From IMG/VR virus record IMGVR_UViG_3300037225_000305: 57,512 bases of DNA, one strand, 5' to 3'. A model generated the notes under the pieces. The model was not told where the DNA came from. It worked only from the letters and a program-made list of their open reading frames with translations, and did no database searches. The stretch is from a virus. A program made the translations under genes and the position numbers. Below are positions 14,817 to 57,512 of this stretch, piece after piece (position 1 is the stretch's first letter; each line of letters opens with the position of its first letter).

Positions 14817-15708
14817 TCGTCCATTGCACTGAATCGAAAGGCGCTAGTCGAAAGATGCGGCCACCGGACTACAAGCCGGGAGGGGGTGGGGGGTAGCTCT
14901 CATTGCGCCCGGTTGTCACGTCCTCGCCCCATCCCACCCGTCAGAAACAGCCTGCTCCCCACCGCATCCCCGCCTCAAAAAAACACCGCCGCCCACCCAG
15001 AAAAAATCCCCCCAAGAAAAATGCTCTATCGGCATCAGTAAGGCCAATCGCACGGGAGGAGCCCCCTGGACAATCCCGACGCGGCCGGCCTGAGCCTGGC
15101 GCTCGCCGCCGGCCGCCGGACAGAACAGGACACAACGTCACCACGTGGCGTAGGAGCGCGTGCAGGGTCGATAGGCTGTAACCCACGGTGATACCCCCTA
15201 CGGCGCGCTGTAGGCCCTGGAACGCGCGGGAATCGGCATTGTACAGACTATCAGGGACTATGCCGGACGCCCTCCGCCTATCTCACATTCTGTAGATACT
15301 GCGACGGTATCGCGCATCCCTTTTGTTATCAACGCGATGGGCCGATTGCAGGCCGAATAGCTGCTGGGACGATCGCCGGCTCGCCTGGTAAGCTTGTTAT
15401 GGCCGGCAAGGTGCTCGCGATCCGGCGCGGCGTCTTCGGTTGACGCGATGGCGTTTCGTGACATGTTGGCGTAGTTATGACGGGCGTTATGGCGTGTTGT
15501 TGAGCGGAAAGGGGATAGGTTTGTGTGGGTATTGGAGTACCCGCATTTGGGCACGCGTGATACCCGCAAAGTAGCGTGGCTGATCCCCGCAACGGGGGTC
15601 TTGTGAGGGGGATTGAGTAGGCGCATGATGGATTCAGGTAGGGGAGCAACGCACCTGGCAGATTCAGGGAACAGCGCGCGACCCTACCGGGCCTGAGGAG
15701 GCAATCCG
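14817..15708. other. Coding desert (about 0.9 kb; 1.2 kb if 14520..14816 is non-coding) with several structured or low-complexity elements
   Basis: Only short, Arg/Pro-rich ORFs on both strands. Contains a G-run at 14878..14893, a C/A-rich G-poor tract at about 14921..15022, a 9-bp GC inverted repeat at 15081..15116, a G/T-rich GGCGT cluster at 15429..15495, and phased repeats at 15538..15606. Confidence 0.5.
15538..15606 (+). repeat. Three 23-bp-phased direct repeats T(A/C)CCCGCA-N12-TGA (iteron-like)
   Basis: TACCCGCA at 15538, TACCCGCA at 15561, TCCCCGCA at 15584; spacing is exactly 23 nt and each unit ends in TGA. Confidence 0.5.
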
Positions 15709-16029
15709 ATGCAACGGTACACGATACAAGACGGAGCTACGACGTACACGCGAATCAGCAAGTCTGATGCGCGCAAGATGTTTGACGCGGGAGAGGTATT
15801 CTACATCACCGCGCACAAGATGCGACCTGGCTTCCCTTTTTCGCTGGGAACGACGATAGACGGAGCGCACGTGCGGGCGGAGCGGAGATTGAGCCCCACG
15901 TATCCGACGCTGGAAAGTCTGTTTGATGCGACGGTGACGGAGTTCTGCTGGTACAACGCGAATTGCCATGAGACGGGGTTGTATGCGGCGTTTTACCGGA
16001 TGGCGGAGCAGAAACCGCGCGTGGCGTAG
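15709..16029 (+). CDS. Hypothetical protein (106 aa)
   Basis: ATG preceded by CCTGAGGAGGCAATCCG (the same leader recurs before 16479); protein-like. Confidence 0.65.
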   Translation: MQRYTIQDGATTYTRISKSDARKMFDAGEVFYITAHKMRPGFPFSLGTTIDGAHVRAERRLSPTYPTLESLFDATVTEFCWYNANCHETGLYAAFYRMAEQKPRVA

Positions 16030-16109
16030 TACTGGTGACCGGTGTTTCCCCGATTGCAACGGGCTTTTGCAAGGTTCATAGTGGGGATACGGTTGAGGAG
16101 CCGAAAACG

Positions 16110-16451
16110 ATGGCATACACGATTTGCGATAGAAACGGAGATTGCCGGCCGCTGCGGTTGATTGTTCCGAACGTGCACGGCGTGCCGGAGGTCAAGGCGG
16201 AATTCACACCGTTTTGGTGGGTCTGCGATCCGTGCAATAGCTCGGAGAAACGGTACTCCGTGGAGTATAACTCCGCGCAGGAGACACCGACGTATTTGTC
16301 GTGGTACCAGGTGGTGACGACGGACGATAGCGCGGAAGATGTGGCGGTGAAGGTGGCGTACTACGCGCGGGTGATTGCGGCTCGAAACGCGCTGGATGCG
16401 GCAAGTGTGGAGTATCGGCGTTTGACGGGGTGCGGGGAAACGGGCGCATAG
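16110..16451 (+). CDS. Hypothetical protein (113 aa)
   Basis: GAGGAG about 9 nt upstream of ATG 16110; MAYTICDRNGDCRPLRLIVPN... Confidence 0.55.
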   Translation: MAYTICDRNGDCRPLRLIVPNVHGVPEVKAEFTPFWWVCDPCNSSEKRYSVEYNSAQETPTYLSWYQVVTTDDSAEDVAVKVAYYARVIAARNALDAASVEYRRLTGCGETGA

Positions 16452-20027: not shown

Positions 20028-20317
20028 CACGCGAGGGCGCAGGGCGCTACGACCACCTGCACGGCGACGAGGACGAGATCGCCGCCGCGCGGGTGGAGCG
20101 GGTCAGTAGTTGCGACGAGTGCGGCAGCACGGACGGCTGCTTGTGCTCAGTACGTGAGGCGCGGGAGAAAGAGTGGGAGCAGGCACACCCGCGCAAGACA
20201 GGCTATCCGTGCTCACTGTGCGGAGCATCCCCTTGCGAGAGTCCGACAGCGTGCAGGGCGCAGGCGCGGGCGGAAAACGAGGATCGAGATGAGCCAAGAC
20301 CTGATACGGAAGACTGA
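20024..20317 (+). CDS. Cys-rich hypothetical protein (97 aa)
   Basis: ATGA coupling; SCDECGSTDGCLC...PCSLCGASPC; the 3' end overlaps the next gene by 29 nt. Confidence 0.45.
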   Translation: MTREGAGRYDHLHGDEDEIAAARVERVSSCDECGSTDGCLCSVREAREKEWEQAHPRKTGYPCSLCGASPCESPTACRAQARAENEDRDEPRPDTED

Positions 20318-21008
20318 GCCGACCGTCCTGGAAGTCATCCAGGCGCTTGCGACCGACGAGCGGGTATCGGTCGAGAAACTGGCGGGCCTGATGGAGCTTC
20401 AGGTCCGCATGGAAGCACGCAACGCCGAGCGGGAGTTTAACATGGACCTCGCGGCGGCGATGGCCGAAATGCCGACTATTCGCAAGAATGCCGTCAAGGA
20501 CATGGGGGCCAAGGGCAGTATCCCCTACGCCACCTACGAAAAATTGGACAAAACAATTCGGCCAATCGAACGCAAGTACGGATTCTGCCGGATCTTCACG
20601 ACAGCGCCGTTGGAGAAGCCGGGTACGCTGATGACGTGCAAGTTACTCCATCGTGGAGGGCATAGCATTTCATCGACCCGGTACCAGCCACCGGACCCAG
20701 GACCGGGGCGCAACGAAACGCAGGCCATCGGAAGCGCCGACAGCTACGCACGGCGGTATCTCACGCTGGCGCTCTGGAACCTTGTAACCATCGGCGCAGA
20801 CGACGACGCGAACTCGGTCGATACGCTGACGGCCACGCAGTTGGAATCCATCACGGACATGGTGAACGATTGCGACTTGACGGCGGCGCGGCTGGCGAAG
20901 TTCCTGGAACTGATGCACGCCACTTCGCTGGACACCATCAAGCGGCACGAGTTCGACCGGGCGATGGAGACGCTTCGGAAGGCGCTGCGGGCAAAGGAGC
21001 CGAAATGA
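20289..21008 (+). CDS. Single-strand annealing protein, ERF-family-like (239 aa)
   Basis: QAIGSADSYARRYLTLALWNLVTIGADDDAN resembles the GSAxxYARRY...DDD signature I associate with ERF-type recombinases; sits next to an exonuclease gene. Confidence 0.6.
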   Translation: MSQDLIRKTEPTVLEVIQALATDERVSVEKLAGLMELQVRMEARNAEREFNMDLAAAMAEMPTIRKNAVKDMGAKGSIPYATYEKLDKTIRPIERKYGFCRIFTTAPLEKPGTLMTCKLLHRGGHSISSTRYQPPDPGPGRNETQAIGSADSYARRYLTLALWNLVTIGADDDANSVDTLTATQLESITDMVNDCDLTAARLAKFLELMHATSLDTIKRHEFDRAMETLRKALRAKEPK

Positions 21009-22756: not shown

Positions 22757-23455
22757 ATGAAGTGCTTCGCATACTGTAGAGTTTCGGGTTTGTCTCAGTT
22801 AGATGGAGATGGCTTTCCAAGGCAGCGGGAAGCCATCGAAACCTATGCGCGGGCGAACGACTTGCGAATAGTCCGATGGTTCCAAGAGAAGGCGGTCCCC
22901 GGCAAGACCGAGTGGGAAGACAGGCCCGCGTGGAGCGAGATGGTGGTATCGCTGAACGGCGTGCAGACCATCATCATCGAGAAGTTGGACCGACTAGCAC
23001 GCGACCTCTTGGCGCAAGAACATATCATCCTGGACTTGCAGCGGCGAGGCATCAATCTGGTGTCGGTTCACGAGCCTGATCTGATGGCGAAAGACCCGAC
23101 GCGCATTCTGATGCGGCAGATCATGGGTTCAATCGCGCAGTACGACCGAGCCATGCTGGTTCTGAAACTCCGGGCGTCCCGCGATCGCAAGAAGAAACTG
23201 ACAGGCCGGTGCGAGGGCGCGTTGGCGTACGGAGCACCAGGCACGGCACCGGAGGAACTGGAAGTGATGGAGCGGGTTCGGGCGCTGCGTGCCGAGGGCC
23301 TGACCTGGGCCGTTGTCGCGGACGAGTTGAACTCGATGGGGTACCGGACGCGGCCACGGCGCGGGACCGAGCAGGGCGCGGAGTGGTATCCGGGGACGTT
23401 GTGCCGGCTGTTCTTTGAGCCGGGTAGGGTAGCGAGGAAAAGGGAGAAAAAGTGA
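22757..23455 (+). CDS. Small serine recombinase (resolvase/invertase-type catalytic domain plus recombinase-like HTH) (232 aa)
   Basis: FAYCRVSGLSQ catalytic-Ser motif, IIIEKLDRLARD, C-terminal VVADELNSMGYRTRPRRG...WYPGTLCRLF. Confidence 0.8.
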   Translation: MKCFAYCRVSGLSQLDGDGFPRQREAIETYARANDLRIVRWFQEKAVPGKTEWEDRPAWSEMVVSLNGVQTIIIEKLDRLARDLLAQEHIILDLQRRGINLVSVHEPDLMAKDPTRILMRQIMGSIAQYDRAMLVLKLRASRDRKKKLTGRCEGALAYGAPGTAPEELEVMERVRALRAEGLTWAVVADELNSMGYRTRPRRGTEQGAEWYPGTLCRLFFEPGRVARKREKK

Positions 23456-25519: not shown

Positions 25520-25737
25520 ACAACTGCAAAGAACGCGGATGCCGCTGGGACATGTCGTATTGGGGTCCAGATGGACCGGACTTCTCGCGGTGGGGCGCTG
25601 AGTGTGGACGCGGCGTGCGGTACCGGGAAACCGGAGCGGCAGTAGCAAGCGGGACGGCCGGCGTGCGGCGAACGTTCGGCGGCGGCAGGAAGCACCGGGG
25701 TTCCGCATCGGAAGACATGGAACGGAGGCAACAATGA
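25516..25737 (+). CDS. Hypothetical protein (73 aa)
   Basis: ATGA coupled at both ends. Confidence 0.4.
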   Translation: MNNCKERGCRWDMSYWGPDGPDFSRWGAECGRGVRYRETGAAVASGTAGVRRTFGGGRKHRGSASEDMERRQQ

Positions 25738-26951
25738 ACGGACTGGAGATGCTGGCGAACGGGAAGGAGCGGCAGGCGCTCTCCTTCCTGCGCAAAGTGG
25801 CGCAAAGGACGCCGAACTACGGAAACCTCATCAACGTAGCCGCTGCGCTACGGGCGTGCGGGGAGGTGGATTCCGCAATCGGCGAACTGAAGCGTGCGCT
25901 GGCGATTGACGAGACGCGCGCCGAGGCGTGGAACAACCTGGGGCAGTGCGCCACCGACCTCGGGAAGTTCGACCAAGCGCCGGGGATTTTCCAGCGCGCT
26001 CTCCAGTGTCACAAGAAAGCAGGTATCCCGATTGACTCGGCCACGGAATCCCTGCTGGCGTTCGCGTACTCCATGATGCGGCTGGGGCAGTTTGAGTACA
26101 TCTGGCCGGTGTGGGAGGCCGCACGGTTCAATCGGTCGTGGCATCCGTTCCCGAATCTGCAGGTGTGGCGCGGGGAACCTAACGCGCGGCTGCTGGTGTG
26201 TCCCGAGGGCGGATTCGGGGACGGGTTCAACTTCCTGCGGTGGGCACGAACGCTGCCGGCCGTTTCCACCACGTTCATGGTATGGGATTCCCTATTCGAA
26301 TTTACGCAACACGCCTTGCCACAACACGTCATCCTCCCCATGTCGCACTCGTTCCAGTACAACGAACTGGCTCGCTACACCCACTGCACGTCGATGTTGA
26401 GCCTGCCGGGGTTGTGCGGCATGAAGTCGTGGGCCGACGTGCCGCCGCCGCTGGACTGGACACCGAGGCACATGCTGGTACACCCGCCGCTGGATCAGAT
26501 CGGCTACTGCTGGGCGGCGGAAGAGAACGGGGTCACGCGCAAGAGCCGGTCTCTGGACGCGCAGGCGGCGAACCGAATCGGGTCTGCCCTTGCCCGAAAA
26601 TGCAAACGGGTGGTGTCGCTGGTACCGGATGGACAGGAACTCTACCGCAGGCGCGGCCAGGTGCCGGTTAGGGGGGTCACCCAGGACGATGCGTTGCTTG
26701 CTGACTGGGAGGAAACGGCGCGGACGATTCTGAAGTGCCGCCTGGTGGTGACGGTCGATACGGCGGTGTTTTGGCTGGCGCAAGCATTGGGAGTACGCAC
26801 GTTGCTGCTACTTCCGCTTCGCTCGGACTGGAAGTGGGGAGTGGCAAATCAGCCCTTCGCATGGGGCGGAAACAACGTGGTGATGTTCCGCAATTCTCAC
26901 CCAGTGACGTGGGACGTTGCGGGGATACTCGAAGTAATGAAAAGCATGTGA
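25734..26951 (+). CDS. TPR-repeat plus GT9-like (heptosyltransferase-fold) glycosyltransferase (405 aa)
   Basis: GGAGG RBS, ATGA coupling; TPR-like N-terminus (AEAWNNLGQCATDLGKFDQA); LLVCPEGGFGDGFNFLRWARTL and VVTVDTAVFWLAQALGVRTLLL resemble GT9 signatures. Confidence 0.5.
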   Translation: MNGLEMLANGKERQALSFLRKVAQRTPNYGNLINVAAALRACGEVDSAIGELKRALAIDETRAEAWNNLGQCATDLGKFDQAPGIFQRALQCHKKAGIPIDSATESLLAFAYSMMRLGQFEYIWPVWEAARFNRSWHPFPNLQVWRGEPNARLLVCPEGGFGDGFNFLRWARTLPAVSTTFMVWDSLFEFTQHALPQHVILPMSHSFQYNELARYTHCTSMLSLPGLCGMKSWADVPPPLDWTPRHMLVHPPLDQIGYCWAAEENGVTRKSRSLDAQAANRIGSALARKCKRVVSLVPDGQELYRRRGQVPVRGVTQDDALLADWEETARTILKCRLVVTVDTAVFWLAQALGVRTLLLLPLRSDWKWGVANQPFAWGGNNVVMFRNSHPVTWDVAGILEVMKSM

Positions 26952-29223: not shown

Positions 29224-29886
29224 ATGTTCGAAACTAGGAAGATTTACCGGGCCGTCAATGCGGCTGAATGGAAGCAGATCATGGTGGCGAGGATTCAGGC
29301 GGCGCTCGACGCAGACAGCACCCTGAATATCATGCGGAGCTTCCCGCTGTTTTCTTATCGCATCAGCATCGCGTTGACGCCATACCGTGCCCAGGGGACG
29401 GACCAGCAGGGCAAGGCACTGCCACCGCTGCCAGGGACGCCCATCGCCTATGAGTGCGAGGGAGAAGTATTCATCCCCGTATTCGAAAGCGCCGTAGAGT
29501 TGGTCGAGGAATCGCCCGTCTACGGCCATGACGCCGATCCCCAGAGCCTTCGCACTGCCGCCGCGATGCCGACCGTCGAGACGGCGCGGTCCAGCATCGG
29601 TGAGATCGTGGATGTAAGGGTGCCGCCGCCCGTCAAGAAGGCGGTGGACCTGGAACCCGCCGAGGCGTTCGAACCCACGGCACCGCCCGTTCCTATCGCC
29701 GCAGAGGAGAAGGAAGACGACACCATTCGCGTAGAGGAAGGCCGGTGGAGCGCGGCGCACAGCGACCCCAAGGCAGAGCAGGCGGTCGAGCACCGTGATC
29801 CAAGCATGGCCCCCGGACGGGTATCCGTGGTCCGCAGCGTGGCCGAGGGTGGCGGCTCCGATCATGGACGAGGAAAGAAGCGATGA
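29224..29886 (+). CDS. Hypothetical protein (220 aa)
   Basis: ATG abuts the upstream TAA; protein-like. Confidence 0.6.
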   Translation: MFETRKIYRAVNAAEWKQIMVARIQAALDADSTLNIMRSFPLFSYRISIALTPYRAQGTDQQGKALPPLPGTPIAYECEGEVFIPVFESAVELVEESPVYGHDADPQSLRTAAAMPTVETARSSIGEIVDVRVPPPVKKAVDLEPAEAFEPTAPPVPIAAEEKEDDTIRVEEGRWSAAHSDPKAEQAVEHRDPSMAPGRVSVVRSVAEGGGSDHGRGKKR

Positions 29887-30431
29887 TAGCCGAGATAGCG
29901 CCGTGGGCGGACTATTCGCCCCACTTCAAGCAACTGTGGAACCCTGCCGTCCCCGGTGCGGTCGCGGAGTTCGGCGTATTTAGAGGCGGGTCCGCGAGAC
30001 AGTTGGCGCAACTTACCGGAAGAACGGTCTATGCGTGGGACACCTACGACGGCCTGCCTGCAGCCGACTTCAATCCCGACGTGGACATCGACGCCCCCGG
30101 CGACTTCACGCCGGAAGCCACGGCTGCGGAACTGTTCGCCGGATGGCCGTCGATAACTCCTGTCGTGGGTAGATTCGCGGACACGCTGCCGAAGTTCTAC
30201 CCCGCCGTGCGGTTTGCGTTCTGCTACTTGGACAGCGACTATTACGAATCGACGCGGCAGGTGCTCGACTGGTTGCCGGGGCGCTTGAGCAACGGCGCGG
30301 TACTGCTGTTCGACGACTACAAATCCCACAAGGGAGTGCGGCAGGCCGTCGATGAGTTCGCGGCGAAGTGGGGAATGGAAGTGAAGCCGATTGCCAGCAG
30401 CGGGGCGGTGGTGACGTGGAGGGCGCGATGA
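29883..30431 (+). CDS. TylF/MycF-family-like SAM-dependent methyltransferase (182 aa)
   Basis: AEFGVFRGGSA (SAM-binding GxG-type) and YLDSDYYESTRQVLDWLPGRLSNGAVLLFDDY match the TylF-family pattern. Confidence 0.65.
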   Translation: MIAEIAPWADYSPHFKQLWNPAVPGAVAEFGVFRGGSARQLAQLTGRTVYAWDTYDGLPAADFNPDVDIDAPGDFTPEATAAELFAGWPSITPVVGRFADTLPKFYPAVRFAFCYLDSDYYESTRQVLDWLPGRLSNGAVLLFDDYKSHKGVRQAVDEFAAKWGMEVKPIASSGAVVTWRAR

Positions 30432-45210: not shown

Positions 45211-45834
45211 CTACCCAGTGAGTCCTTCCCGTTCGTCCGCGTGCCCTTTTGCTTCCGACAATCTGGCAATCTGGGTAGTCATTCCGTTTGTGTGATCGTT
45301 CAAAACCTTCATTTCACGGCCCCGTCGCCTTTCTCTCCAGTATGCCAGCAGGGCATTTAGGCCGAGAAGAAGAACCGCTACCAACACTCCGCTCCCGATT
45401 CCTCGAAACCATCCCATCATCGCCTCCCGGTCGGCCTTGCGTTCGGCTTCGCGCGCTGCCTTCTCGTCTTTAATCGCCTGCATGTCTTGTTTCAATCGCG
45501 CGATATCGGCAGCCTCGACTTCCGGCTGGAGCGCGTCGATCTCCGTACGGTGGAGGTCGAGGCGGTGGCTGAGGTCCACCCGCAGGTCGTCCACAGCTTG
45601 CCGTGTTGCTGCTTCCTGCACTTCAAGCCTCTCAACTTTGTCGATTAGCTTGTTGTGCTGATCTATCATCACTTCAGCGATTGGCTTGCCAGATATCTGC
45701 GCGTAAGTGCGCGGGTCCAGAGCCTCTTTCGGTCGCGCCCCTGGAGCCTGCGCCAGATTCAATAGAGGCAACAGGAGAACAAATAGTAAAGGCAGGCAGG
45801 CCACCACAACTGTTTTTCTGTCCCTGGGATTCAT
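45211..45834 (-). CDS. Envelope-spanning-type protein: N-terminal signal/anchor, coiled coil, C-terminal TM (207 aa)
   Basis: VVVACLPLLFVLLLPLLNLAQA; central heptads; GIGSGVLVAVLLLGLNALLAYW. Confidence 0.5.
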   Translation of the reverse strand: MNPRDRKTVVVACLPLLFVLLLPLLNLAQAPGARPKEALDPRTYAQISGKPIAEVMIDQHNKLIDKVERLEVQEAATRQAVDDLRVDLSHRLDLHRTEIDALQPEVEAADIARLKQDMQAIKDEKAAREAERKADREAMMGWFRGIGSGVLVAVLLLGLNALLAYWRERRRGREMKVLNDHTNGMTTQIARLSEAKGHADEREGLTG

Positions 45835-45838
45835 ATGT

Positions 45839-46822
45839 TTAGTCGATCAGAAAGATTTCGTGGGATTGCAGATAGTTGGAATCCAGGGGTCCGCTGTATG
45901 TCGGTCCGGTCTCTTCGTTGCTGATGCGAGAGTCCATGAAACTGTTGTCGTCCAACTGCGCCCGGTTGAGCAAGTCCCGGTACTCCGCATCCACCCGCGT
46001 CAGCGCGTTCAGGTGGTACGCCTTCGTCTTGATATCCACGTCGGGTTGGTTGGCGACAAGCTCGTGGCCGTAGTGCCTAGCCCGAGCCATAATGAGTTGG
46101 TCGGGAATCTGCGGCGGCAGAACGTCGGTCGGCTTCACCGCATCACCCTTCGTCATGTACTCCCACAAGTAGCCGATTTGCTGCACCGGACCCGGCCACG
46201 CTTCGAACCTCGGGCGCTGTTGCGTGTCCCCCGGCATCAGCACGTAGTCGTGCGCCGCCATCCAAATCGGAATCGAGAAGTTCTGCCGGTTCGGGTCCAC
46301 CCGATCTACTTCCTTCTGCGTGCGGAAGAGATTGCGGTACCGGAAGCGGTACATATTCACGGGGTCCACCATCGAAAGCGACCGCTTGAAGTCCACGGAA
46401 GGAGTCGGAATGTACGGCTGGTAGATCATGTACGAACTGGCGGCGGAACCCTTCTCGGCATACGGGCGGTCAAGAGTGATGGTGGAGACCCCATCGTACG
46501 CGATGATGTTGTAGATGGGACCGCCTGTGACGCGGAACTGACGGAGAGTAAGGGGAAGTGCAGGAGGCGCGGGAAAGGCGACCGCCAGCCAGAGAGGGGA
46601 CGCTGTAGCGTCAGCCACAACGGTATTCGTGAACTGCGTAGTTTGAACCGTGCCGCTGGTGATGATGGAAGGCGCGAACCACGATCCGTTGGCCTTCAGG
46701 AAAGACCACTCGCGGGAGTCGCGGATGTCCTTATAGGCCCGCTGGACCAGGGGCAATGTGGCCAGCGGGTCTATTTGGGAGAACCAGGACTTCATTTCTG
46801 CCGCGAATTGTGCCAGTTGCAT
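45839..46822 (-). CDS. Hypothetical virion protein (327 aa)
   Basis: AGGAGA RBS; ATG; late operon. Confidence 0.65.
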   Translation of the reverse strand: MQLAQFAAEMKSWFSQIDPLATLPLVQRAYKDIRDSREWSFLKANGSWFAPSIITSGTVQTTQFTNTVVADATASPLWLAVAFPAPPALPLTLRQFRVTGGPIYNIIAYDGVSTITLDRPYAEKGSAASSYMIYQPYIPTPSVDFKRSLSMVDPVNMYRFRYRNLFRTQKEVDRVDPNRQNFSIPIWMAAHDYVLMPGDTQQRPRFEAWPGPVQQIGYLWEYMTKGDAVKPTDVLPPQIPDQLIMARARHYGHELVANQPDVDIKTKAYHLNALTRVDAEYRDLLNRAQLDDNSFMDSRISNEETGPTYSGPLDSNYLQSHEIFLID

Positions 46823-46834
46823 TTTGTGAATCTC

Positions 46835-49800
46835 CTATTGCATGTACCCCGTCATCATTCCCGTCGCGCGGCTGAACACTCCCGCCGCCCCAATCGTTAT
46901 CGAAAAGCCGGTCGGCCCTGCGCTCCCCGCACCATTCGTCGCCGTCACGTTGATGGTGCTCGTGCCTGCTGTCGTCGGCGTGCCCGAGAGCAGTCCCCCG
47001 CTCGTGAACGTCAACCCGCCCGGCACCGCGTCGTACGTCCAGGTGATCGGCGTGTCTCCCATCGCCTGGAACTGTGCCGAGTAGGGGATTCCTACCGTGC
47101 CTGATGTCAACGGGCTGGTTGTGGTGATCGTCGGGGGAGTGCCTGACAATCCACGGGGCAGGATGTCCCACTTCGGGTTGCTACTCCCACCCGTGTTGGG
47201 CACGTTGGCGTTGAGCCACGTCATCATGTTGCCCCCCGTGTAGGAACCATCCGAGTAAGCGTAAGCCCAACTCGCCATCCCCTTGAATATGTTGGCGTAG
47301 TCAGCCGGACCTGGAGTGTGAGCGACCAGCCCGCTGTTGTTCCAAATGAAGTAGTTCCTGGTATTCAACGGCGCGTAGTGAAGAACGCCGGCCGTGGTAC
47401 CCCAGCCCGTAAGCGGCACGCCAGCCTGATGCTCCGCAAGGGTGTCGGAGTCGATCATGTACGGGTTGGAGTTAGGGTTCAGAACCAGATTGATCCATGC
47501 TTTAGCCGAATAAGAAAGTAGTGACTCGAACGAGAATCCTTGATCTTTGCCGTGGCCCCACGCTGCGTATAGGAAGCCCATCATCCACAGCTTTCCGCAT
47601 GTCGTGGTGCCGTCGTAGTTTACCGTCCAGGGCGCAGCGCATTGATCCGCGGTTCCCCCGGTAGGCCACCCGAGCGGAGAGACATGTGGCGCGGCCTGCT
47701 CGGGTTCAGTCGCAGTTGTCTGGTTTCCCCAACACCATTTATCTGTCGTAGTGCTGGCGTTGTACCCAGCGCAAGTCGGGTCTGACGGCGGGTATGCCCC
47801 GGTCGTGATGTTGTACCGGCCCTCGGAAATCTGGATGAAGTTGTTCACAATGCCGGTGAAGTAGGATTTTTCCGCTGTCCCGTCTGGAGTAGAAATCGCC
47901 GCCTGAATTGCGGATCGCAAGGTCCAAGCATTTCCCCGCGCCTGTAGTCCTACAGCGCCCAGGTATCCCCAGGCACCGGCCCTTCCGTTGATAGAGCGAT
48001 CCGGGTTGATCGGGATTTGGTTATAGGAGTTCCATGCTAGCATCTCCTGAAGCGGGTACCAGTCGCCCGTCATCAGGTACTCGAAATATCCGTAAGACGG
48101 CTGATGGGCAGCGTCATAGACCCACCCGTGCGATGTACTCCGAGGCGCGGCATAGGTAACGTCGTCGGAACCCGTTGTGACGTTGAACCTCATGGTAGGG
48201 CGCGCAATGACGGACACCGGATGCCCGAAGGCATTAATCGTGTTTGTCGGCGCATCGAACCATCTGCCAGTCGCGCTCTCCCACAGATGGATCGGCACGA
48301 GGCCACTACAATTTAGCGTCTGCGTTACCGGCCCATTGAATGAGGTATTGTCTACGGACGGGTTGGACATTCCGTACAACCACCGTACTTGCCATGCGGG
48401 GATAATTCCGATAGGATCGGTGGTAGTCTGCCCGGTGGTACCCATGTCCTTCGGAAATCCTCCCGTCACGGTCTGCGTGACCACTTGGCTAGTCGCCGGG
48501 TCACACTGGTCCGTGACAACCCCACCAAACATGTTTCCAGTCCAGGTGCTTGCGTCGGCTGCAATGGAGGCCGCCGTTACCGTCCCCGTCGTATCGTAGT
48601 TTGGAATCAGCCCAGTGCTCTCCAGGTACGCAAAGCCGTGATCGAATTTTACGTCACCCAAAGCTGTGCCGCTCCAGTAAGTCTTACGCCACCGCGTCAT
48701 CGCATAGTGGGGAAACGCCGCATGGGAATATTTGGTGGTCCCATTTCCGCTGTCTCCGAAGATCGTGATGGCGTATCGTTGGTCTTGCAGAGCTGTAGTC
48801 CAATCGTCCGTGAGGACGTAATCGACCTTCACTCCGCCCGTATATCCGGCGAAGAACGTCAAAACAAAGACCGGATGCAGGCTCTTGAGCGTAGTGTCAC
48901 TTGCCCATGTAGCCGTACCGTTCGGGAACCCGCCGATTTCCAATGGACAGAATGGAAGGTTCGCACTCCCTTGAGTACTTGGGACAATCGCCGCTCCCCC
49001 ATTCGAGACAGACAACTGGAACGTGTTGGCAGCCGGATTCACAACGTAATAAGTCTGACTGTTTGTAAAACCTGAAGGGGGGCTGCAATAAGTATTGTTG
49101 ACCCTAAGGGTGACGAGTGCACCGGCTTGCAGTGTGTGCCCGTTGGACGTGATTGTTCCATCTGTGGTGTTCACAGCAGTAGATGCCAGATTCACCGTAC
49201 AGTTTCCCGAGCAGGTGTATCCAAAATCATTGGACCGTGCGGATGTCCGGTCCTCCAGGATGACTTGTGTGACAACAGGACCCTGTAGCCAATAGCGCAC
49301 ACCAAGCGAGTTTGGGTCGGTGCTGATCGACGATGCCGCGTTCAAAATGGTACGGGCGTCTGCCGTCTTCGTGACGCTGGACGCAACCGTCTGGATCTCC
49401 GCATCCCAGGAACGCGCAAGAAGATCGGTCTTGGACAAGTAGCCGGTGTTGTTCCCAGTGCTCTGATTCTGAAAAGTGACCGTGATGCTACCGCTTGCCA
49501 CAATCGTGGAAACAAAACTGACCATCGCCTGCTTCACACTGTTATCAGGCCACCGGGTTTTCACGTCGCACTGCGTAGGCACAGGCACGCCATTGACCAC
49601 GGCCTGGGCATACTGGGCGATGTCGCCCTGCTTGAAGGTCCGAAAGATCATATTGGGCCGGTTTGTCTGCGTGGAGCCGGACACGTCCGTGAGCACGGCT
49701 GGCGCGAGAGGGGTGCCCGTCGCGTCACCGGGGATTGTGGCTAAGTTGGTCGGCTCCGCTGGCTCCCAGGTGAATCCTACAGGCTCGTTGAATGTGATGA

Positions 49801-51010
49801 GCCAGTTGGAAAGCGTGTCTCCATTCCAGCCTACCGTCACGTCGGAATCTCGGATGTTGCCGCGTGGTCCGCCAGTTGGGCCGACCTTGGTAATGTCGGC
49901 GCCATAATAAGCGTACTGAAGTTGGCATTGATTCGGAGAGCACATTGGCGTAGACGCCAGCGTGATAGTCAATGTGTCGGCAGAGGCCACTGTGACGTTG
50001 GTTACGGTAACCTTTGTCCCGGTCGTATCGGTGAAGTGGAATCCCCACGGGGAGCAACCCGCTCCACTTGGACAGTTCACGTCGCCGGATGGATTGGTAA
50101 CGTTCGTAGTGTCGATGACCACCGGACCTACCGGGAGCCACAACCGCAGAGTCACCGCTGCTCCGGTGAGAGTAATGGCGCGTGGCGAGGTTGGCTTCCA
50201 CCCTTTATGTTGCCGCGCAATCCAATCCAACGCACGTCCCTGGTATTCTCCCAAGTTCTTGCTGCCACCCGCCGATAGGTGGCAGGGATTGTTTGGCGAG
50301 TAGTCCATGGTGTACTTTGGGGTGCTGAGAAAGATCGTCCCATCCGCGTAGTGATCCATCGCGGCGTGCCATTGGCCAATTTGCGTAGAATCCCCGCTGC
50401 CGGTGTTTTTGCAGGTTGTCCAGGCGTTCATTTGATCGACTACTATCGGGATTAAGCCAGTCTGCCCGATGGCTGCGTTGATGTCAGTTTGCAGCGTGGA
50501 TTGCCATTGCACGAGATCGGCTTCGTAAGTCGCCGGTGCCATCGGCCAATCTGACTCGCCGTGGGTGATGACGACGGACGGAACCCAGTACGTTCCAGGG
50601 ATCGCCAGCACTTGGGTCTTGCCGTTTGTCACGCCCGTGATAAGGTTGTTGTATGGTGTGGTGCCCTGTTTGATCGTGGAATAGATCGCCCCGTCTACGC
50701 CGTACTTGTTCACCATGAACCTGCGCCCGCCGAGAGCGCTTGCCTGGTTACCGAGCGAAGTGGCCGGAGCTTCTCCGTCCTGGCCATTACCTGTAGTCGC
50801 GGGCTCCTGAAGGTTCGTCAGGCTCCCAGTAGGCGGAAACCCCGTCATCATGTAGTTGCCGTTGGTGGAAACGGAGCACGCCGGATATCCAGTCTCCCCG
50901 CAACGAGAGTAGTCACCCCGGCTCAAGCTCTGCCCGGTGGTTGGTATGTGATAGACGGTCTGGCCGATGCCCGCCAACGTGATAACAAAGAATACCACCA
51001 GGAATCTCAC
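46835..51010 (-). CDS. Giant polysaccharide-active protein: signal-peptide-like N-terminus, SASA/SGNH-like esterase, lyase-like middle, Ig-like C-terminal repeats (1391 aa, GTG start)
   Basis: MRFLVVFFVITLAGIG; GQSLSRG ... ITHGESDW ... NPCHLSAGG (GQS / GESD / H blocks); YLMTGDWY; C-terminal PLTSGTVGIPYSAQF...ITWTY...GGLTFTSGGLLSGTPT (putative Ig pattern). Confidence 0.55.
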   Translation of the reverse strand: MRFLVVFFVITLAGIGQTVYHIPTTGQSLSRGDYSRCGETGYPACSVSTNGNYMMTGFPPTGSLTNLQEPATTGNGQDGEAPATSLGNQASALGGRRFMVNKYGVDGAIYSTIKQGTTPYNNLITGVTNGKTQVLAIPGTYWVPSVVITHGESDWPMAPATYEADLVQWQSTLQTDINAAIGQTGLIPIVVDQMNAWTTCKNTGSGDSTQIGQWHAAMDHYADGTIFLSTPKYTMDYSPNNPCHLSAGGSKNLGEYQGRALDWIARQHKGWKPTSPRAITLTGAAVTLRLWLPVGPVVIDTTNVTNPSGDVNCPSGAGCSPWGFHFTDTTGTKVTVTNVTVASADTLTITLASTPMCSPNQCQLQYAYYGADITKVGPTGGPRGNIRDSDVTVGWNGDTLSNWLITFNEPVGFTWEPAEPTNLATIPGDATGTPLAPAVLTDVSGSTQTNRPNMIFRTFKQGDIAQYAQAVVNGVPVPTQCDVKTRWPDNSVKQAMVSFVSTIVASGSITVTFQNQSTGNNTGYLSKTDLLARSWDAEIQTVASSVTKTADARTILNAASSISTDPNSLGVRYWLQGPVVTQVILEDRTSARSNDFGYTCSGNCTVNLASTAVNTTDGTITSNGHTLQAGALVTLRVNNTYCSPPSGFTNSQTYYVVNPAANTFQLSVSNGGAAIVPSTQGSANLPFCPLEIGGFPNGTATWASDTTLKSLHPVFVLTFFAGYTGGVKVDYVLTDDWTTALQDQRYAITIFGDSGNGTTKYSHAAFPHYAMTRWRKTYWSGTALGDVKFDHGFAYLESTGLIPNYDTTGTVTAASIAADASTWTGNMFGGVVTDQCDPATSQVVTQTVTGGFPKDMGTTGQTTTDPIGIIPAWQVRWLYGMSNPSVDNTSFNGPVTQTLNCSGLVPIHLWESATGRWFDAPTNTINAFGHPVSVIARPTMRFNVTTGSDDVTYAAPRSTSHGWVYDAAHQPSYGYFEYLMTGDWYPLQEMLAWNSYNQIPINPDRSINGRAGAWGYLGAVGLQARGNAWTLRSAIQAAISTPDGTAEKSYFTGIVNNFIQISEGRYNITTGAYPPSDPTCAGYNASTTTDKWCWGNQTTATEPEQAAPHVSPLGWPTGGTADQCAAPWTVNYDGTTTCGKLWMMGFLYAAWGHGKDQGFSFESLLSYSAKAWINLVLNPNSNPYMIDSDTLAEHQAGVPLTGWGTTAGVLHYAPLNTRNYFIWNNSGLVAHTPGPADYANIFKGMASWAYAYSDGSYTGGNMMTWLNANVPNTGGSSNPKWDILPRGLSGTPPTITTTSPLTSGTVGIPYSAQFQAMGDTPITWTYDAVPGGLTFTSGGLLSGTPTTAGTSTINVTATNGAGSAGPTGFSITIGAAGVFSRATGMMTGYMQ

Positions 51011-52065
51011 AGGCTACTTCCATACCATCTGACCCGCCGTATATTGGCAGGCGGCGTGTAGGTCAATTCCCACGCTCCAATGGTCGGAGCGGCTTGCCTC
51101 GTGTATCCGCCGATGTCCTTAGGCCCGTTGGTCGCGTCCAGAAACCCGTTCGCCGCCAAGTTGGTAGATGTGATCCCGATGAGATTCATACTGGCGGTCG
51201 CCGCGCTGGTAAACGGAGTCGCCGTGCTCCAGGTCACGTTGTATTGCTGATTGGTCCCGGGCAACCCCACAGCCAGGTTGGTGGCGTTGTATTTGCTCGC
51301 AGTGGCATCCCAACTTCCGCTCGTCGCCGTAGAGAAACCGAAGATCGCCGTCGATTGCAGGATTGCCGATGACCCGGAAGACATCGTGATCCCTTCGGCA
51401 GAGGCACCCACATCGGCTGGTTTGACGATGCTGCACCCCAGCACCAGAGGCGTTCCGCTGATAAGGTAGAATCCCTTCCCCGTGCCATGCTGGATGGCGG
51501 CTATGTTGATGAACTTCGCGCCCGTCGCATTATTCGCCTGAATCACACTCTCTGACCCGGCTGTCGTCACTTCAAGGATGAGGTCCTTTAGGGTGTTGTT
51601 GCTGTACGTGATTAGTGCTTCTGACGACCCAGTGCCCGTCGTCTTGATCTGCAACCGGCTGATGGTGAGGTAGGCGGCAACCGTTTTGATCCCGAACGTG
51701 CCGGTTACGGCTGTCCGTATTCCTACGCCTTTGGTCTGGTCGTAGACCAGAGGATTAGTGCGGACTCCGGCGTTATCCTGAAACGACTGACCCGCCGCCG
51801 CCGTTATAGTGATGGTGTGGGTCGAATCGGTGGTGTGCGCGGAGAAGACCGGCACGGCGGCAAACTCAGAATCGTTGTAAAGCAAACAGACGTAGCTGTT
51901 CCCATCGGTCACAAGATTAGCCGGAATTGCTACTTCACAGGAATGAACGTCAGTATAGTTTCGGCTCGACGTGCCGACCGTAGCCGTGCAGGGCGTTCCG
52001 GTAAAGAGACCCGCACAAGCTCCCCAGGAAGACGCCGACAAGAGGAATAAGAGAGGCAGTCTCAT
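51007..52065 (-). CDS. Beta-helix-like protein with signal-peptide-like N-terminus (352 aa)
   Basis: MRLPLLFLLSASSWGACAG; repetitive short beta-strand pattern (ITITAAAG.., LTISRLQIKT.., LILEVTT..); ATGA/GTGA coupled on both sides. Confidence 0.45.
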   Translation of the reverse strand: MRLPLLFLLSASSWGACAGLFTGTPCTATVGTSSRNYTDVHSCEVAIPANLVTDGNSYVCLLYNDSEFAAVPVFSAHTTDSTHTITITAAAGQSFQDNAGVRTNPLVYDQTKGVGIRTAVTGTFGIKTVAAYLTISRLQIKTTGTGSSEALITYSNNTLKDLILEVTTAGSESVIQANNATGAKFINIAAIQHGTGKGFYLISGTPLVLGCSIVKPADVGASAEGITMSSGSSAILQSTAIFGFSTATSGSWDATASKYNATNLAVGLPGTNQQYNVTWSTATPFTSAATASMNLIGITSTNLAANGFLDATNGPKDIGGYTRQAAPTIGAWELTYTPPANIRRVRWYGSSL

Positions 52066-53066
52066 CGTATCACCTTCCAGTTCAGGCTCACCGCACCAGG
52101 AGTGATACCCGTGCCGGTTCCATTACATACTGTAAAATTCACAGCCCCAGCGCTGGCGAACGGGTAGATTATCAGGCCGTCTGTGCCCGCCTTCCCATAG
52201 CCGGTGACCCCACTGATATCGGCATTAGGGGTCCAGGTAATCGTATCGGTGGATGCGACGGTTGTCAGGCTTCCAGTGGAGGCGGTTGGCTGCACTGCAG
52301 CGGCGCAGGCGTTCGCACCGATCAGCGTTGTGCCAAGTGTGGCCGTGCCCACGGCGATTGTCCGCGTGATACTAGAAGGGATATCCGCGTTGGCAATCGC
52401 GCGAGGTAGCAGCACGCTGGGATTCGCGCCATCCGAGTACACAAAACCTGCCGTTGGGGCAGACCACAGAGTATTAAAAAATGCAGTAGGCACGCTCGTA
52501 GGCGCCTGAATTCCCGTAGTGTTTGCTGGTGGCGTATTTGCAGTCCCTTGCACCATCGCGTGCATTCCTGCGGCTCCGCCAACAGGGGGACAGTTTTGTA
52601 TGTGGGTGGTCGGGTCTATCGTGCACCCACTGTCCGCAAGCACTCCGCCACTACCCGCCACCTGAATGGCATTGGGACTACCAGCAGCAGAAGCGCCTCC
52701 ACCCGTTGCCGCCCACACTCCCGCTGACACGTAGCGGCACAATTGCACCTGCCCGATGGTCTGGGATGTGCAGTTCGCGGAGTCGGTAACCACGGCCAAG
52801 GCGGTAACGGGAGGAGTGAGAGCATTCAACTGCGCCAGGGTGTACGGACCAAGCACCGTAGTGCTCACCAATAGGTTCCGTCCGACCACATTGACATTAA
52901 CCCCGTCGTCGCTGATTGCTGAATCGCCAACTGAGGTCGAACTGGTGGCTTTGGGAATCTTGTTGGTGGTCAGACCGGATATCCCGCCACCTCCCCCGCT
53001 TGGCGGCGGCGTTATCTGTGCTGAACACGCGGTGGCGATAAACGCAAACAACGCTACTATCCTCAT
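52062..53066 (-). CDS. Fibre-like protein with signal-peptide-like N-terminus (334 aa)
   Basis: MRIVALFAFIATACSAQITPPPSGGGGG; Gly/Thr/Ala/Ser-rich body; ATGA coupled. Confidence 0.5.
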   Translation of the reverse strand: MRIVALFAFIATACSAQITPPPSGGGGGISGLTTNKIPKATSSTSVGDSAISDDGVNVNVVGRNLLVSTTVLGPYTLAQLNALTPPVTALAVVTDSANCTSQTIGQVQLCRYVSAGVWAATGGGASAAGSPNAIQVAGSGGVLADSGCTIDPTTHIQNCPPVGGAAGMHAMVQGTANTPPANTTGIQAPTSVPTAFFNTLWSAPTAGFVYSDGANPSVLLPRAIANADIPSSITRTIAVGTATLGTTLIGANACAAAVQPTASTGSLTTVASTDTITWTPNADISGVTGYGKAGTDGLIIYPFASAGAVNFTVCNGTGTGITPGAVSLNWKVIR

Positions 53067-53425
53067 ACGACAATCACTCCCAGGCGCACGTATTCCCCAG
53101 ACAGATTAGTGCCAGTTGCCGCCTCCGCCCCAGCCTGTTGTTGCTGCCCTCCAACTACTGTGTTGACTGCGGAAATCCACTTCAGTATCCAGAATGCTGA
53201 AGACTTCCGAATCACCACGATATCGAAGTTGGCAGAGAACGAAGCTGTTGAGGAAATGAATTCAATCGCGTTGGAGCCAAGTGATCGAGAGTTGATTAGG
53301 TCTCCTCCGGTCGGAGGAGACCCGGCAATCACGGGCGCATATGATTGAGGCCCCGCCCATCGTATGCGCCCGTATAATTCATCTCCCTGCGGAGCAAACC
53401 GTCGTTCCCAAGCAGATACCGACAT
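53063..53425 (-). CDS. Paralog 2 of a tandem pair (120 aa)
   Basis: Aligns along its length with 53430..53798 (for example PPTGGD, W(I/T)LKWIS, VGGQxQxAG(A/T)EA). Confidence 0.6.
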   Translation of the reverse strand: MSVSAWERRFAPQGDELYGRIRWAGPQSYAPVIAGSPPTGGDLINSRSLGSNAIEFISSTASFSANFDIVVIRKSSAFWILKWISAVNTVVGGQQQQAGAEAATGTNLSGEYVRLGVIVV

Positions 53426-53429
53426 GGGG

Positions 53430-53798
53430 TCACCCCGCCATCGTGTTGATTTGGAGTTTCACGGATTCGCCGCTGAGATCGGTAGCCGAGATGGCTTCCG
53501 TCCCTGCGACTTGGCTTTGCCCGCCGACCGTGGCCGTGACCAGCGAAATCCACTTCAGGGTCCACGTAGCATCCGAAATGCGAATCGGGACTATCTGAAA
53601 CCGACCCGTGTAGCTGGAATCCCCCAGCACCAGGACGATCATACTCACGCCGAACTGCGAAGCCTTGATTTGGTCGCCACCCGTGGGCGGCGCGCCCGCC
53701 GTGACCTGCGTGTAACTCGATGGCCCGGTCCACCGCACGCGGCAGTAGGGTTCGTCGCCGGGAGGTGCCAGTTTCCGCAACCAGTCTTTGACCGGCAT
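53430..53798 (-). CDS. Paralog 1 of a tandem pair (122 aa from ATG 53798)
   Basis: ATG 1 nt after the upstream TAA; see the paralog alignment. Confidence 0.6.
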   Translation of the reverse strand: MPVKDWLRKLAPPGDEPYCRVRWTGPSSYTQVTAGAPPTGGDQIKASQFGVSMIVLVLGDSSYTGRFQIVPIRISDATWTLKWISLVTATVGGQSQVAGTEAISATDLSGESVKLQINTMAG

Positions 53799-54525: not shown

Positions 54526-55686
54526 TCAAGCGGTGATCCCGTAAAAACTTTTCTGATGACGAGGACTTAAACAGATCAGATTGCAGGCCGCGTGCGTGCG
54601 CGCTACAACCTTGGTGCTGTCCGCCGCCGGGTAGAAGCCCCACAACCCGAACTGGTAGCGCGGGCTGGCCGACAACCGGAACTGCCATTTGGTCGTGTTG
54701 TACCAGTCGAACGTCTCGCCCACTGTGACGACTGCCGTAGCCACCGGCAAGTTGCTCCGGGCATCGACGCCAGACGGAACGATGAACGTTCCGGTCTTGT
54801 AGTTGCCAAGCACCGGGTCGTTCACGCCGTACGCCGCGCTCGGGTAGTAGTCGTCGGGGAAGATGATGGCGTCGTTCATCTTCACGCCGGTCACGCCCCA
54901 GATGGCGTCTTCCGCGTTGGTCAGGTTGCCGCGCTGCAAGGGCTGAATCTTTTCCTTGATGTAGGCGAACGCGCGCTTGGTCGTCACACCGAGATTCGGG
55001 CGTTCCCGGCCAATGGAGGCGTCCCAGTAGCCCTCTTCCAGAATGGAGTAGGTCAGGGCACCACCGGGCGAGGTCTGCCCCGCCGCCGTGGTGGAGTCGC
55101 CGCAGTAGCGCGGAATCGAGTTCAGCGTGGAACCCACAGCCCCGTTGCGCAACTGCCCGCCGTACGTGGTGAAGATGCTGCCGTCCCACCCCGGCGTGAT
55201 GCCGTCGTTGATGGCTTCGATCTTTCCGTTGATGTCGTACGGGCGATTGCCGACGATGCCGCTTCCGCTCGGCTGTCCGTGCAGGTTAATCGCAATGGCG
55301 ATGTCCGCGCAGATCGAATTCATCATGTTCGCCAGGTTCAGGTTCAACAGCGAGAACACTGCGTTTGGCCCGACGTTCAACACGTCGATGTTTTCCATGT
55401 ACTCGGGGTAGATCGCCGCGTAGTACTTCGGGTCGAACCGAGTGCCCGCGATGGTCTGCACCTTGTCCAAGTTGAACTGCTGGCCGATCCCGTAGCTGCT
55501 GGTCAACAGCGGAGCGTACAGGAAGGTCTGCTGCATCGTCGAACCGCCGCCGAACGTCGCCAGGCAGTGGTCCCGAATGTAGGCGAGGAAAGCGACATCG
55601 TTGAAGAAGTTATCCTGCACCACATTCGGATAAATTTCGTACAACGTAGTCGCTGAAAGTTCGTCCAGGGCCGGATCGAAAGCCAT
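54526..55686 (-). CDS. Putative major capsid protein (386 aa)
   Basis: Size, AAGAGG RBS, position after a scaffold-like gene, and a 111-nt gap with a GC hairpin (54433..54459) downstream. No homology check. Confidence 0.55.
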   Translation of the reverse strand: MAFDPALDELSATTLYEIYPNVVQDNFFNDVAFLAYIRDHCLATFGGGSTMQQTFLYAPLLTSSYGIGQQFNLDKVQTIAGTRFDPKYYAAIYPEYMENIDVLNVGPNAVFSLLNLNLANMMNSICADIAIAINLHGQPSGSGIVGNRPYDINGKIEAINDGITPGWDGSIFTTYGGQLRNGAVGSTLNSIPRYCGDSTTAAGQTSPGGALTYSILEEGYWDASIGRERPNLGVTTKRAFAYIKEKIQPLQRGNLTNAEDAIWGVTGVKMNDAIIFPDDYYPSAAYGVNDPVLGNYKTGTFIVPSGVDARSNLPVATAVVTVGETFDWYNTTKWQFRLSASPRYQFGLWGFYPAADSTKVVARTHAACNLICLSPRHQKSFYGITA

Positions 55687-57378: not shown

Positions 57379-57512
57379 TTACGCACCATCGGTCTTAATT
57401 GTCAAGGTCTTATTCCTCTCCGAGGCGGGCTCAATCCACTGCACGCCACCCGCCGCCAGCCCTCGGTTGAAGTTCACAACGAGTTTACCTGTCCGTTTTT
57501 CCCGTGCAGCAG
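57379..57512 (-). CDS. C-terminal part (with TAA stop at 57379-57381) of the 61-aa junction-spanning ORF listed at 1..179
   Basis: Same reading frame continues through the duplicated 127 bp. Confidence 0.45.
   Translation of the reverse strand, partial: AAREKRTGKLVVNFNRGLAAGGVQWIEPASERNKTLTIKTDGA
57386..57512. repeat. Terminal exact duplicate (copy 2) of 1..127
   Basis: See copy 1. Confidence 0.95.

Follow-up and report, generated by a model that had tools for sequence, protein, structure and literature searches.

In the textbook account, the assembly of tailed phages is entirely cytoplasmic. The known fibres and tailspikes of podophages, among them T7 gp17, P22 gp9 and cyanophage A4 gp24, are large late proteins of the structural module that carry no signal peptide, fold in the cytoplasm and attach spontaneously as the final assembly step; P22 tailspikes and T7 fibres also attach spontaneously to particles in vitro. 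Here we describe a virus record from IMG/VR, IMGVR_UViG_3300037225_000305, a stretch of 57,512 nucleotides (the window, in what follows, is this whole stretch), in which late proteins of 334–1391 amino acids (aa) with fibre-like and enzyme-like modules begin with Sec-type (general secretory) signal peptides placed ahead of their first domain.

Signals of this type are known from other phage systems. Lys44 of oenophage fOg44 and Lyz of P1 are Sec or signal-arrest-release (SAR) endolysins that are made late and accumulate outside the cytoplasm before lysis, and they resemble the proteins described here in being late phage proteins that use the host Sec pathway. They are, however, small muralytic lysis enzymes, whereas the proteins of the window are fibre-sized, and an exported Sec/SAR endolysin was rejected as an explanation because searches of Pfam, PHROGs and NCBIfam gave no muralytic domain. 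The pIII and pVIII proteins of the filamentous (Ff) phages have cleavable Sec signals and are virion proteins, including the receptor-binding pIII, that are assembled outside the cytoplasm; Ff particles are extruded through the membrane without lysis, whereas the window encodes a tailed double-stranded DNA phage with terminase, portal and major head protein. Morons, such as lambda Lom and Bor or T5 Llp, share with our proteins a signal peptide and a location near tail-fibre genes, but they are small, autonomously transcribed and expressed in lysogens, whereas the genes studied here are translationally coupled late genes for proteins of 334–1391 aa. In soil prophages, Sec signals were found on 5% of a catalogue of "auxiliary" carbohydrate-active enzyme (CAZyme) genes (PMC13507307); that study excluded tail fibres and structural proteins, whereas the signals here lie at fibre positions and on fibre modules. 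In prophages of Porphyromonas gingivalis, predicted cleavage by signal peptidase (SPase) I exposes a glutamine on the products of five genes of unknown function, which the authors read as an adaptation to the host secretion system (PMC10367356); here, by comparison, the carriers are fibre- or spike-like, the host belongs to another phylum and the family is very large. Sec-exported endolysins, morons, Ff coat proteins, signal-bearing viral CAZymes and prophage genes that follow this glutamine rule (Q-rule) are thus known already, and our literature search returned no report of tailed phages in which whole sets of proteins resembling tail fibres or tailspikes bear Sec signals.

An earlier sequence-only reading of the window had assigned Sec-type signals to seven late-arm proteins and had judged fibre-sized proteins with such signals in a structural operon to be atypical for a tailed phage, a judgement that our results support. 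All seven open reading frames (ORFs) were found where that reading had placed them, on the minus strand and with the N-termini it had quoted (arrows mark predicted cleavage sites):

6583..6711, minus strand: 42-aa ORF, signal MKILVSIALCLAFASAVHA↓QITPPPSGGGG
7116..10895, minus strand: 1259-aa fibre, signal MKTLLLLALACSAHC↓M
10896..11207, minus strand: 103-aa protein, signal MKLFLTIAILMTGLGFA↓QD, helical-looking by eye
45211..45834, minus strand: 207-aa membrane protein, N-terminal hydrophobic segment of ~20 residues, second transmembrane segment at ~aa 139–157, coiled-coil-looking middle
46835..51010, minus strand: 1391-aa mosaic protein, GTG start, signal (M)RFLVVFFVITLAGIG↓Q
51007..52065, minus strand: 352-aa protein, signal MRLPLLFLLSASSWGAC↓AGLFTGTPC, repeats beta-helix-like by eye
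52062..53066, minus strand: 334-aa small fibre, signal MRIVALFAFIATACSA↓QITPPPSGGGGG, coded by ~53019..53066

The N-termini were scored with a home-made heuristic that requires a net non-negative n-region, an uncharged hydrophobic core (h-region) and, in the c-region, small residues at positions -1 and -3 (the n-h-c shape with the AxA rule). This rule matched 7 of the 31 late-arm genes, and these were exactly the seven that had been flagged. Among 527 mechanical ORFs of at least 40 aa it matched 12, six of which were flagged genes; the 103-aa gene went unscored in that scan, as it starts at an internal ATG inside a longer ORF. When ORFs of at least 250 aa were considered, the rule matched none in T7 (0/15) or phiKMV (0/33) and one in P22 (1/18), namely GtrC, a true membrane protein. 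None was matched in Tunturi_3 (0/21) or Tunturi_4 (0/19), whereas four were in Tunturiibacter phage Tunturi_1 (4/21) and four in the window (4/30, plus one spurious antisense ORF). Motifs resembling Shine-Dalgarno (SD) sequences were present 6–14 nucleotides 5' of all seven starts. All six secreted-type proteins have a positively charged n-region followed by an uncharged hydrophobic h-region of ~7–15 residues, and small neutral residues occupy -1 and -3 (window sites CSA↓Q, GFA↓Q, VHA↓Q, GIG↓Q and CSA↓H). The seventh, of 207 aa, is by its sequence a membrane protein with two transmembrane segments, the N-terminal one a signal-anchor, and does not belong to the fibre class, so that the earlier assignment of Sec-type signals stands for six proteins and falls for this one.

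The signal shape is under selection. Homologues in the 1259-aa family, the nearest relatives of the 352-aa protein and the family of proteins that share the C-terminal knob of the 334-aa protein all keep the n-h-c shape though the sequence of the signal diverges, which is the form that N-terminal conservation in related phages, proposed earlier as a check, was found to take. The 334-aa small fibre is laid out as a signal, a Pro/Gly linker, a fibre-start motif and the knob (aa 232–334; 52065..52373, minus strand), a beta-sandwich of ~100 aa with two conserved Cys that AlphaFold2 predicted with a local-distance score (pLDDT) of 96.5. At E<=1e-3, 1805 representative proteins have this domain, C-terminal in every one. 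Signals were recognised by the rule in 115 of 150 family members and in more by eye, and we estimate that ~80–90% of the representatives are signal-bearing. A Lys or Arg stands ahead of the hydrophobic core in 140 of the 144 scorable members, Gln is the most frequent residue past the predicted site (~17-fold enriched), and "AQ" follows the core in 68 of 119 members, against 0.034 expected per scanned window. In Bacteroidetes, SPase I substrates have a documented preference for Gln at +1, where it is cyclised to pyroglutamate (PMC5837995). Since this preference concerns the mature N-terminus, an enrichment of Gln after the site is sensible only if the signal is cleaved, and it points to cleavage here. 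We conclude that the N-termini of six of the seven proteins are, as far as sequence can tell, genuine Sec-type signal peptides, usually ending A↓Q, by which the proteins would be exported. Five of these are predicted to be of SPase I type, typically cut at A↓Q, and that of the 352-aa protein to be either of SPase I or of lipoprotein type.

The knob occurs on at least 132 IMG/VR viral contigs, of which 55 loci with GC contents of 0.40–0.69 were examined. Its genes carry signals by the rule in 45 of these 55 loci, and in more by eye, and they lie in runs of 2–5 consecutive signal-bearing genes. The Foldseek neighbours of the knob were weak (E 0.16–1) and comprised H-type lectins as well as the C-terminal domains of R-pyocin fibres and of tailspikes (phi297 gp61, LKA1 gp49 and Klebsiella depolymerases); weak as they are, they are thematically consistent with a lectin-like knob.

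Similar blocks of signal-bearing genes were found in structural modules of unrelated phage types. Tunturi_1, a cultured podophage with a lytic infection cycle (PMC11924767), has predicted signals on gp12 (1190 aa, ASA↓Q), gp13 (675 aa, GFA↓Q), gp14 (the "tail spike", 919 aa, ANA↓T), gp16 (149 aa, ANA↓Q) and gp17 (1184 aa, AGA↓Q). Blocks of 4–6 consecutive signal-bearing proteins were observed inside structural modules at three loci: L038 (10001..21487), a Tunturi-like podophage in which five consecutive signal-bearing genes for proteins of 322–1271 aa lie behind a gp11 homologue; L041 (6977..13789), from a phage that has a Clp-type protease domain as well as a PF05065 capsid protein; and L097 (6700..11871), of myovirus type, where the block comes right after baseplate hub, wedge and gpI-like genes, the usual place of fibres. 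At a further locus, L063, the signal run lies a few kb downstream of the baseplate genes. Some block members have lipobox-like signal ends, e.g., "LVSGC" in L063 and "FFTGC" in L059.

The 1259-aa fibre has an N-terminal region (aa 16–420) that is conserved across homologues, with Cys23 and Cys48 invariant. Its first ~175 residues, signal included, are common to Tunturi_1 gp12, and most full-length homologues have a divergent signal followed by a conserved mature N-terminus. AlphaFold2 modelling of aa 1–420 was confident for aa 17–117 only, a beta-sandwich (10545..10847) with pLDDT 80–88. The best PDB matches of this domain were chains of 100–130 aa in the tail complexes of the cyanopodophages Pan3 and Pam1 (E 3e-3 to 1e-2, probability 0.99–1.0), which would be fibre N-termini, and in BFVD it had 27 matches at E<=1e-3 to proteins annotated as "pectate lyase superfamily", "tail fiber", "tail collar" and "intramolecular chaperone". 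Podophage fibres dock at the adaptor–nozzle junction via an N-terminal domain of this type, a beta-sandwich of ~100–130 aa (PMC12002296), to which repeats or a beta-helix and a lectin-like tip are joined. The remainder of the 1259-aa protein contains 4–5 fibre repeats of the form "TPGGxNTQVQFNNSGxFGGS" and a GNVGIGT-type C-terminal part; the matches to PHROGs "tail fiber" families among the cassette and fibre proteins were to phrog_4201 and phrog_9942, and the 1259-aa protein has one of them. Within the N-terminal region, homologues mostly have both or neither of the Cys in each of the pairs 23/48, 132/146 and 262/302 (375/384 tracks less well), a co-occurrence that we read as the signature of probable disulfides and that would fit folding in the periplasm. 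Raw Cys content did not separate signal-bearing from signal-less late proteins, so that this pairing was the one informative Cys feature. Pfam, NCBIfam and PDB sequence searches yielded next to nothing for the seven proteins or for the tail proteins encoded nearby.

The public JGI call for the 1259-aa gene is a protein of 950 aa (P0001) that lacks the signal and the N-terminal domain, so automated annotation would hide the signal. The predicted mature start (aa 16) coincides with a Met, a feature also seen in several homologues, and the database entry P0024 begins at this Met. An internal start at Met16, which would yield dual cytoplasmic and exported isoforms, was considered and rejected, as there is no SD-like motif and the feature is not general. 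The 103-aa gene ends immediately before the 1259-aa gene begins, with its stop codon adjoining the ATG, and the 103-aa protein is possibly a periplasmic assembly factor. In relatives, variable large genes occupy this fibre site 5' of a small-terminase-like gene. A relative with a terminase 77% identical has there a 1771-aa signal-bearing homologue and two small signal-bearing proteins. By locus, L030 has a signal-bearing fibre, L031 and L032 have a large ORF whose start lies outside the locus, and L002 and L027 have truncated fragments.

The remaining two large carriers lie with the 334-aa gene in a block of three. The 1391-aa protein is a mosaic of three modules, and the start of an independent database entry for it (P0044) is identical to ours:

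49778..50959: module 1 (aa 18–411), SASA/SGNH-esterase-like
47153..49693: module 2 (aa 440–1286), directly post-signal in other secreted proteins
46883..47143: module 3 (aa 1290–1376), He_PIG Ig domain

Residues 18–408 align with the C-terminal portion of phrog_4201 "tail fiber" (E 1.7e-53). A Pfam search of the 1391-aa protein itself gave no match to the SASA esterase family PF03629; several homologues aligned to module 1 carry PF03629, and the motif "TGQSLSRG" was seen by eye after the signal. These homologues have the module mostly at the C-terminal end of phage-fibre-like proteins, one of which (P0061) also has a T7 tail-fibre N-domain. Relatives of module 2 have signal- or membrane-anchor-like N-termini, and in P0060 it follows directly after the signal. 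The suggestion made earlier that the carriers are exported enzymes remodelling glycans fits the 1391-aa protein, with its esterase-like, secreted-protein and He_PIG modules.

The 352-aa protein provides direct sequence evidence that a normally cytoplasmic structural-module protein acquired an export signal. About 75 of its 87 homologues are signal-less, start with M[AP]TTVVKTIGTSSRDYS and are located in phage structural modules; only the nearest relatives carry an extra signal plus "C-x-GLFTG-x-PC" ahead of this conserved start. One signal-bearing homologue lies behind a head-closure gene in a block of five or six signal-bearing genes, in a phage that encodes a PF05065 capsid protein together with a Clp-type protease domain. 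The signal ends WGAC↓AG (SWGAC in the window copy), with a Cys that is invariant in all signal-bearing homologues, and because of this Cys cleavage could be by either SPase I or SPase II. As a lipobox we took [LVI][ASTVI][GAS]C with an invariant Cys and no charge in the six positions ahead of it. In most homologues an Arg stands 5–7 residues before the Cys, and another Cys, 9 residues further along, could form a disulfide instead. No match to the 352-aa protein was found in cultured phages.

Consecutive genes of the block overlap by 4 nucleotides (53063–53066, 52062–52065 and 51007–51010), as the earlier reading had seen for the three late genes. Its surroundings are as follows:

53430..53798, minus strand: conserved gene X, in the position of Tunturi_1 gp10, in tandem with X'
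53063..53425, minus strand: gene X' (120 aa), a paralogue of X with 51% identity, heading the inserted cassette
45839..46822, minus strand: gp11-like tail protein without a signal, 30% identical to Tunturi_1 gp11 "tail protein", the downstream boundary of the cassette

In relatives with 82–91% identical head proteins, gene X is followed directly by the gp11-like tail gene, without the three-gene block. The 6.6-kb insertion in the window (46823..53429) consists of X' and the three signal-bearing genes, and by this comparison the block is an exchangeable accessory cassette that brings its own copy of a small structural-module gene. It is plausible that X' serves as a cognate, cassette-specific adaptor.

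The signals on Tunturi_1 gp12–14, gp16 and gp17, the soil family, the tailspike-type domain of the 1259-aa protein and the accessory cassette together suggest a fourth option beside the three that the sequence-only reading had offered, namely receptor-binding proteins that mature outside the cytoplasm. We tentatively favour the view that the carriers are the phage's own receptor-binding and glycan-degrading proteins, which would mature in the periplasm and dock on finished tails at lysis, the enzyme-rich members acting also as free enzymes. Late in infection, the proteins would be translated in coupling with head and tail genes, threaded into the periplasm by the host Sec machinery and freed of their signal. 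There they would fold and oligomerise, form disulfides and expose an N-terminal Gln, and DNA-filled heads with tails would be assembled in the cytoplasm. Once holin and endolysin break the boundary between the compartments, the 1259-aa and 334-aa fibres would dock on the finished tails, as in the final step of podophage assembly, at no cost in energy. The 1391-aa mosaic, and possibly the 352-aa protein, would act as free enzymes on the glycans of the envelope or of exopolysaccharide (EPS) before and after lysis. The spontaneous attachment of P22 tailspikes and T7 fibres in vitro makes such a last docking step physically plausible. With still less confidence we extend this proposal to a general one: that widespread tailed soil phages, comprising the podophages Tunturi_1 and Tunturi_2 and myovirus-type relatives, may export their receptor-binding proteins through the host Sec system, have them matured in the periplasm by disulfide formation and a cleavage that exposes Gln, and arm fibre-less particles at lysis.

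Several observations weigh against this proposal. Our literature search found no precedent for a tailed phage whose fibres reside in another compartment until lysis, and the paper describing the Tunturi phages contains no virion proteomics and does not mention signal peptides (PMC11924767). Tunturi_1 shares its host strain with Tunturi_3, a phage whose fibres are signal-less, so that export is not a requirement of the host, and the siphovirus Tunturi_4 likewise lacks signals; the idea that signals are a general trait of acidobacterial phages was rejected on the tail proteins of these two. With ~300 residues between the N-terminus and the beta-sandwich in P0020, this domain cannot strictly be called a terminal docking domain, and when its co-inheritance with the tail-protein lineage was considered, the domain was found in distant lineages and, as said, internally in one protein. 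The identity of the matched Pan3 and Pam1 chains as fibre N-termini is our own reading of them, and the structural neighbours of the knob have the weakness described above. In the 1391-aa protein, modules 2 and 3 are of a kind typical for secreted proteins of cells, and the three-gene block is dispensable in close relatives.

Some of these points would suit proteins that are exported but never enter the virion, free accessory enzymes or binders that act on EPS, capsule and lipopolysaccharide from the periplasmic side and after release, helping progeny to escape from the matrix and to avoid readsorption to debris; receptor binding would then fall to signal-less tail proteins, e.g., the 1282-aa gp31-like protein. 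We consider this the main rival, somewhat less likely than the favoured view. It draws on the combination of esterase module, directly post-signal module and He_PIG domain in the 1391-aa protein, on the accessory nature of a block that relatives with 82–91% identical head proteins lack, on the signals carried by 5% of soil-prophage CAZymes (PMC13507307) and on the Q-rule genes of P. gingivalis prophages, which are signal-bearing and of unassigned function (PMC10367356). The 1259-aa and 334-aa proteins, however, have fibre repeats, lectin-like knobs, a spike-type N-domain and no recognisable enzyme, and a free receptor binder that is not an enzyme would rival the progeny for receptors. In Tunturi_1 and L097, moreover, no other convincing fibre gene stands beside the tail or baseplate genes, and in L030 a fibre of the 1259-aa type lies upstream of the terminase genes, in the place where L031 and L032 have a large ORF. 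A rather improbable alternative is that the N-termini remain uncleaved, as membrane tethers holding fibres at the inner membrane until assembly or as anchors buried in the tail. Uncleaved anchors would remove the topological problem, the 207-aa protein demonstrates that the phage does encode true membrane-anchored late proteins, and the Met at the mature start of some 1259-aa homologues, where P0024 begins, makes a signal-less isoform conceivable. Yet the mostly short h-regions, the conserved small residues at -1 and -3 and the enriched Gln at +1 are traits of cleaved SPase I substrates, Met16 lacks an SD-like motif, and because signal peptides insert N-in, the mature part would end up in the periplasm anyway. 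The anchors proposed by the sequence-only reading are disfavoured on these grounds, and its envelope-anchored assembly or release apparatus received no specific support, the 207-aa protein being the only one with an envelope-anchored look.

We regard it as decidedly improbable that the carriers are moron-type surface proteins of lysogenic conversion, in the manner of lambda Lom and Bor or T5 Llp, expressed from a prophage and unrelated to the virion. A position beside tail-fibre genes is classic for signal-bearing morons, the genome has genes for a small serine recombinase and for a repressor-like protein, and related contigs have been binned with metagenome-assembled genomes (MAGs) of Bryobacterales and Acidobacteriia. 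The proteins are, however, huge and fibre-like, unlike small outer membrane proteins, and their genes overlap flanking late genes by 4 nucleotides. A moron has its own promoter and terminator; around the cassette, promoter- and terminator-like sites showed no excess over the expectation from shuffled sequence (3 against 3.8 and 8 against 7.5 expected) in a scan restricted to a sigma-70-type consensus. The window is also a circular free genome, and the infection cycle of Tunturi_1 is lytic (PMC11924767). That the signals are an artefact of wrong start codons or chance hydrophobic N-termini is hardly credible: the predictor is home-made and JGI called the 1259-aa gene as 950 aa only, but SD-like motifs precede every start, the P0044 start agrees with ours for the 1391-aa protein, the shape is kept in well over a hundred divergent homologues, and the controls were clean.

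If receptor-binding proteins do mature outside the cytoplasm, completion of the virion would depend on lysis and on the host's Sec, SPase and Dsb systems, and these would be new points of host dependency and resistance. Infected cells would lose receptor or EPS from within, with effects on superinfection, progeny escape and soil carbon turnover. Pipelines that class viral genes with signals as "auxiliary metabolic" or as derived from the host would give receptor-binding proteins a wrong label, and predictions of host range would overlook them. A demonstration of extracytoplasmic arming would establish a compartment-split assembly that has not been described for Caudoviricetes and would be categorically new; Tunturi_1 and Tunturi_2 and their host are in culture.

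The 42-aa ORF resembles the 334-aa gene in DNA solely through a near-identical block of 37 nucleotides (~6640..6680 and ~52985..53025), which encodes AQITPPPSGGGG at both mature starts; the flanks have diverged and the copies lie on the same strand. The ORF is probably a recombination remnant of a gene of the 334-aa type, and the block is likely a footprint or a substrate of cassette recombination between the two fibre loci.

The window is a podophage genome. An exact 127-bp direct repeat at its termini (1..127 and 57386..57512) indicates that it is a closed circular, complete phage genome of ~57.4 kb, and the late operon crosses the circular junction. Its only cultured relatives, the podoviruses Tunturi_1 and Tunturi_2, are distant (head protein 33%, portal 30%, terminase 28% and gp11, gp30 and gp31 homologues 26–30% identical). 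Close relatives, with head proteins mostly 82–95% identical, are IMG/VR contigs and the contigs binned with Bryobacterales and Acidobacteriia MAGs, and from this binning the host of what is a soil phage is very probably an acidobacterium. The late arm occupies the minus strand, and the early genes, among them ERF, small serine recombinase, tetratricopeptide repeat (TPR) protein and TylF-type methyltransferase, occupy the plus strand at 16.4–31.4 kb; the repressor-like protein is encoded in addition. Features that define the genome are:

3681..5900, minus strand: large terminase
2968..3684, minus strand: endonuclease gene between large terminase and portal (phrog_4645, E 3e-41)
176..2224, minus strand: portal
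54526..55686, minus strand: major head protein, preceded past the junction by a scaffold-like gene and followed by ~20 more genes down to 31510
20154..21008, early arm: ERF recombinase, adjoining the small serine recombinase
22757..23455, plus strand: small serine recombinase, 232 aa, Resolvase N-terminal domain (E 3e-28)
25602..26951, plus strand, early arm: TPR-repeat protein
29883..30431, plus strand, early arm: TylF-type O-methyltransferase

The size of the serine recombinase suggests the resolvase/invertase type and not a large serine integrase. In Tunturi_1 an HNH endonuclease is placed just past the portal gene. Between the late and early arms, a region of ~5 kb (11200..16450) contains no ORF with the third-position GC of known genes (0.52–0.63 against 0.65–0.83), no tRNA and no Rfam match. 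It has short scattered repeats only and near-zero DNA similarity to relatives, and the GC skew changes sign near 16 kb.

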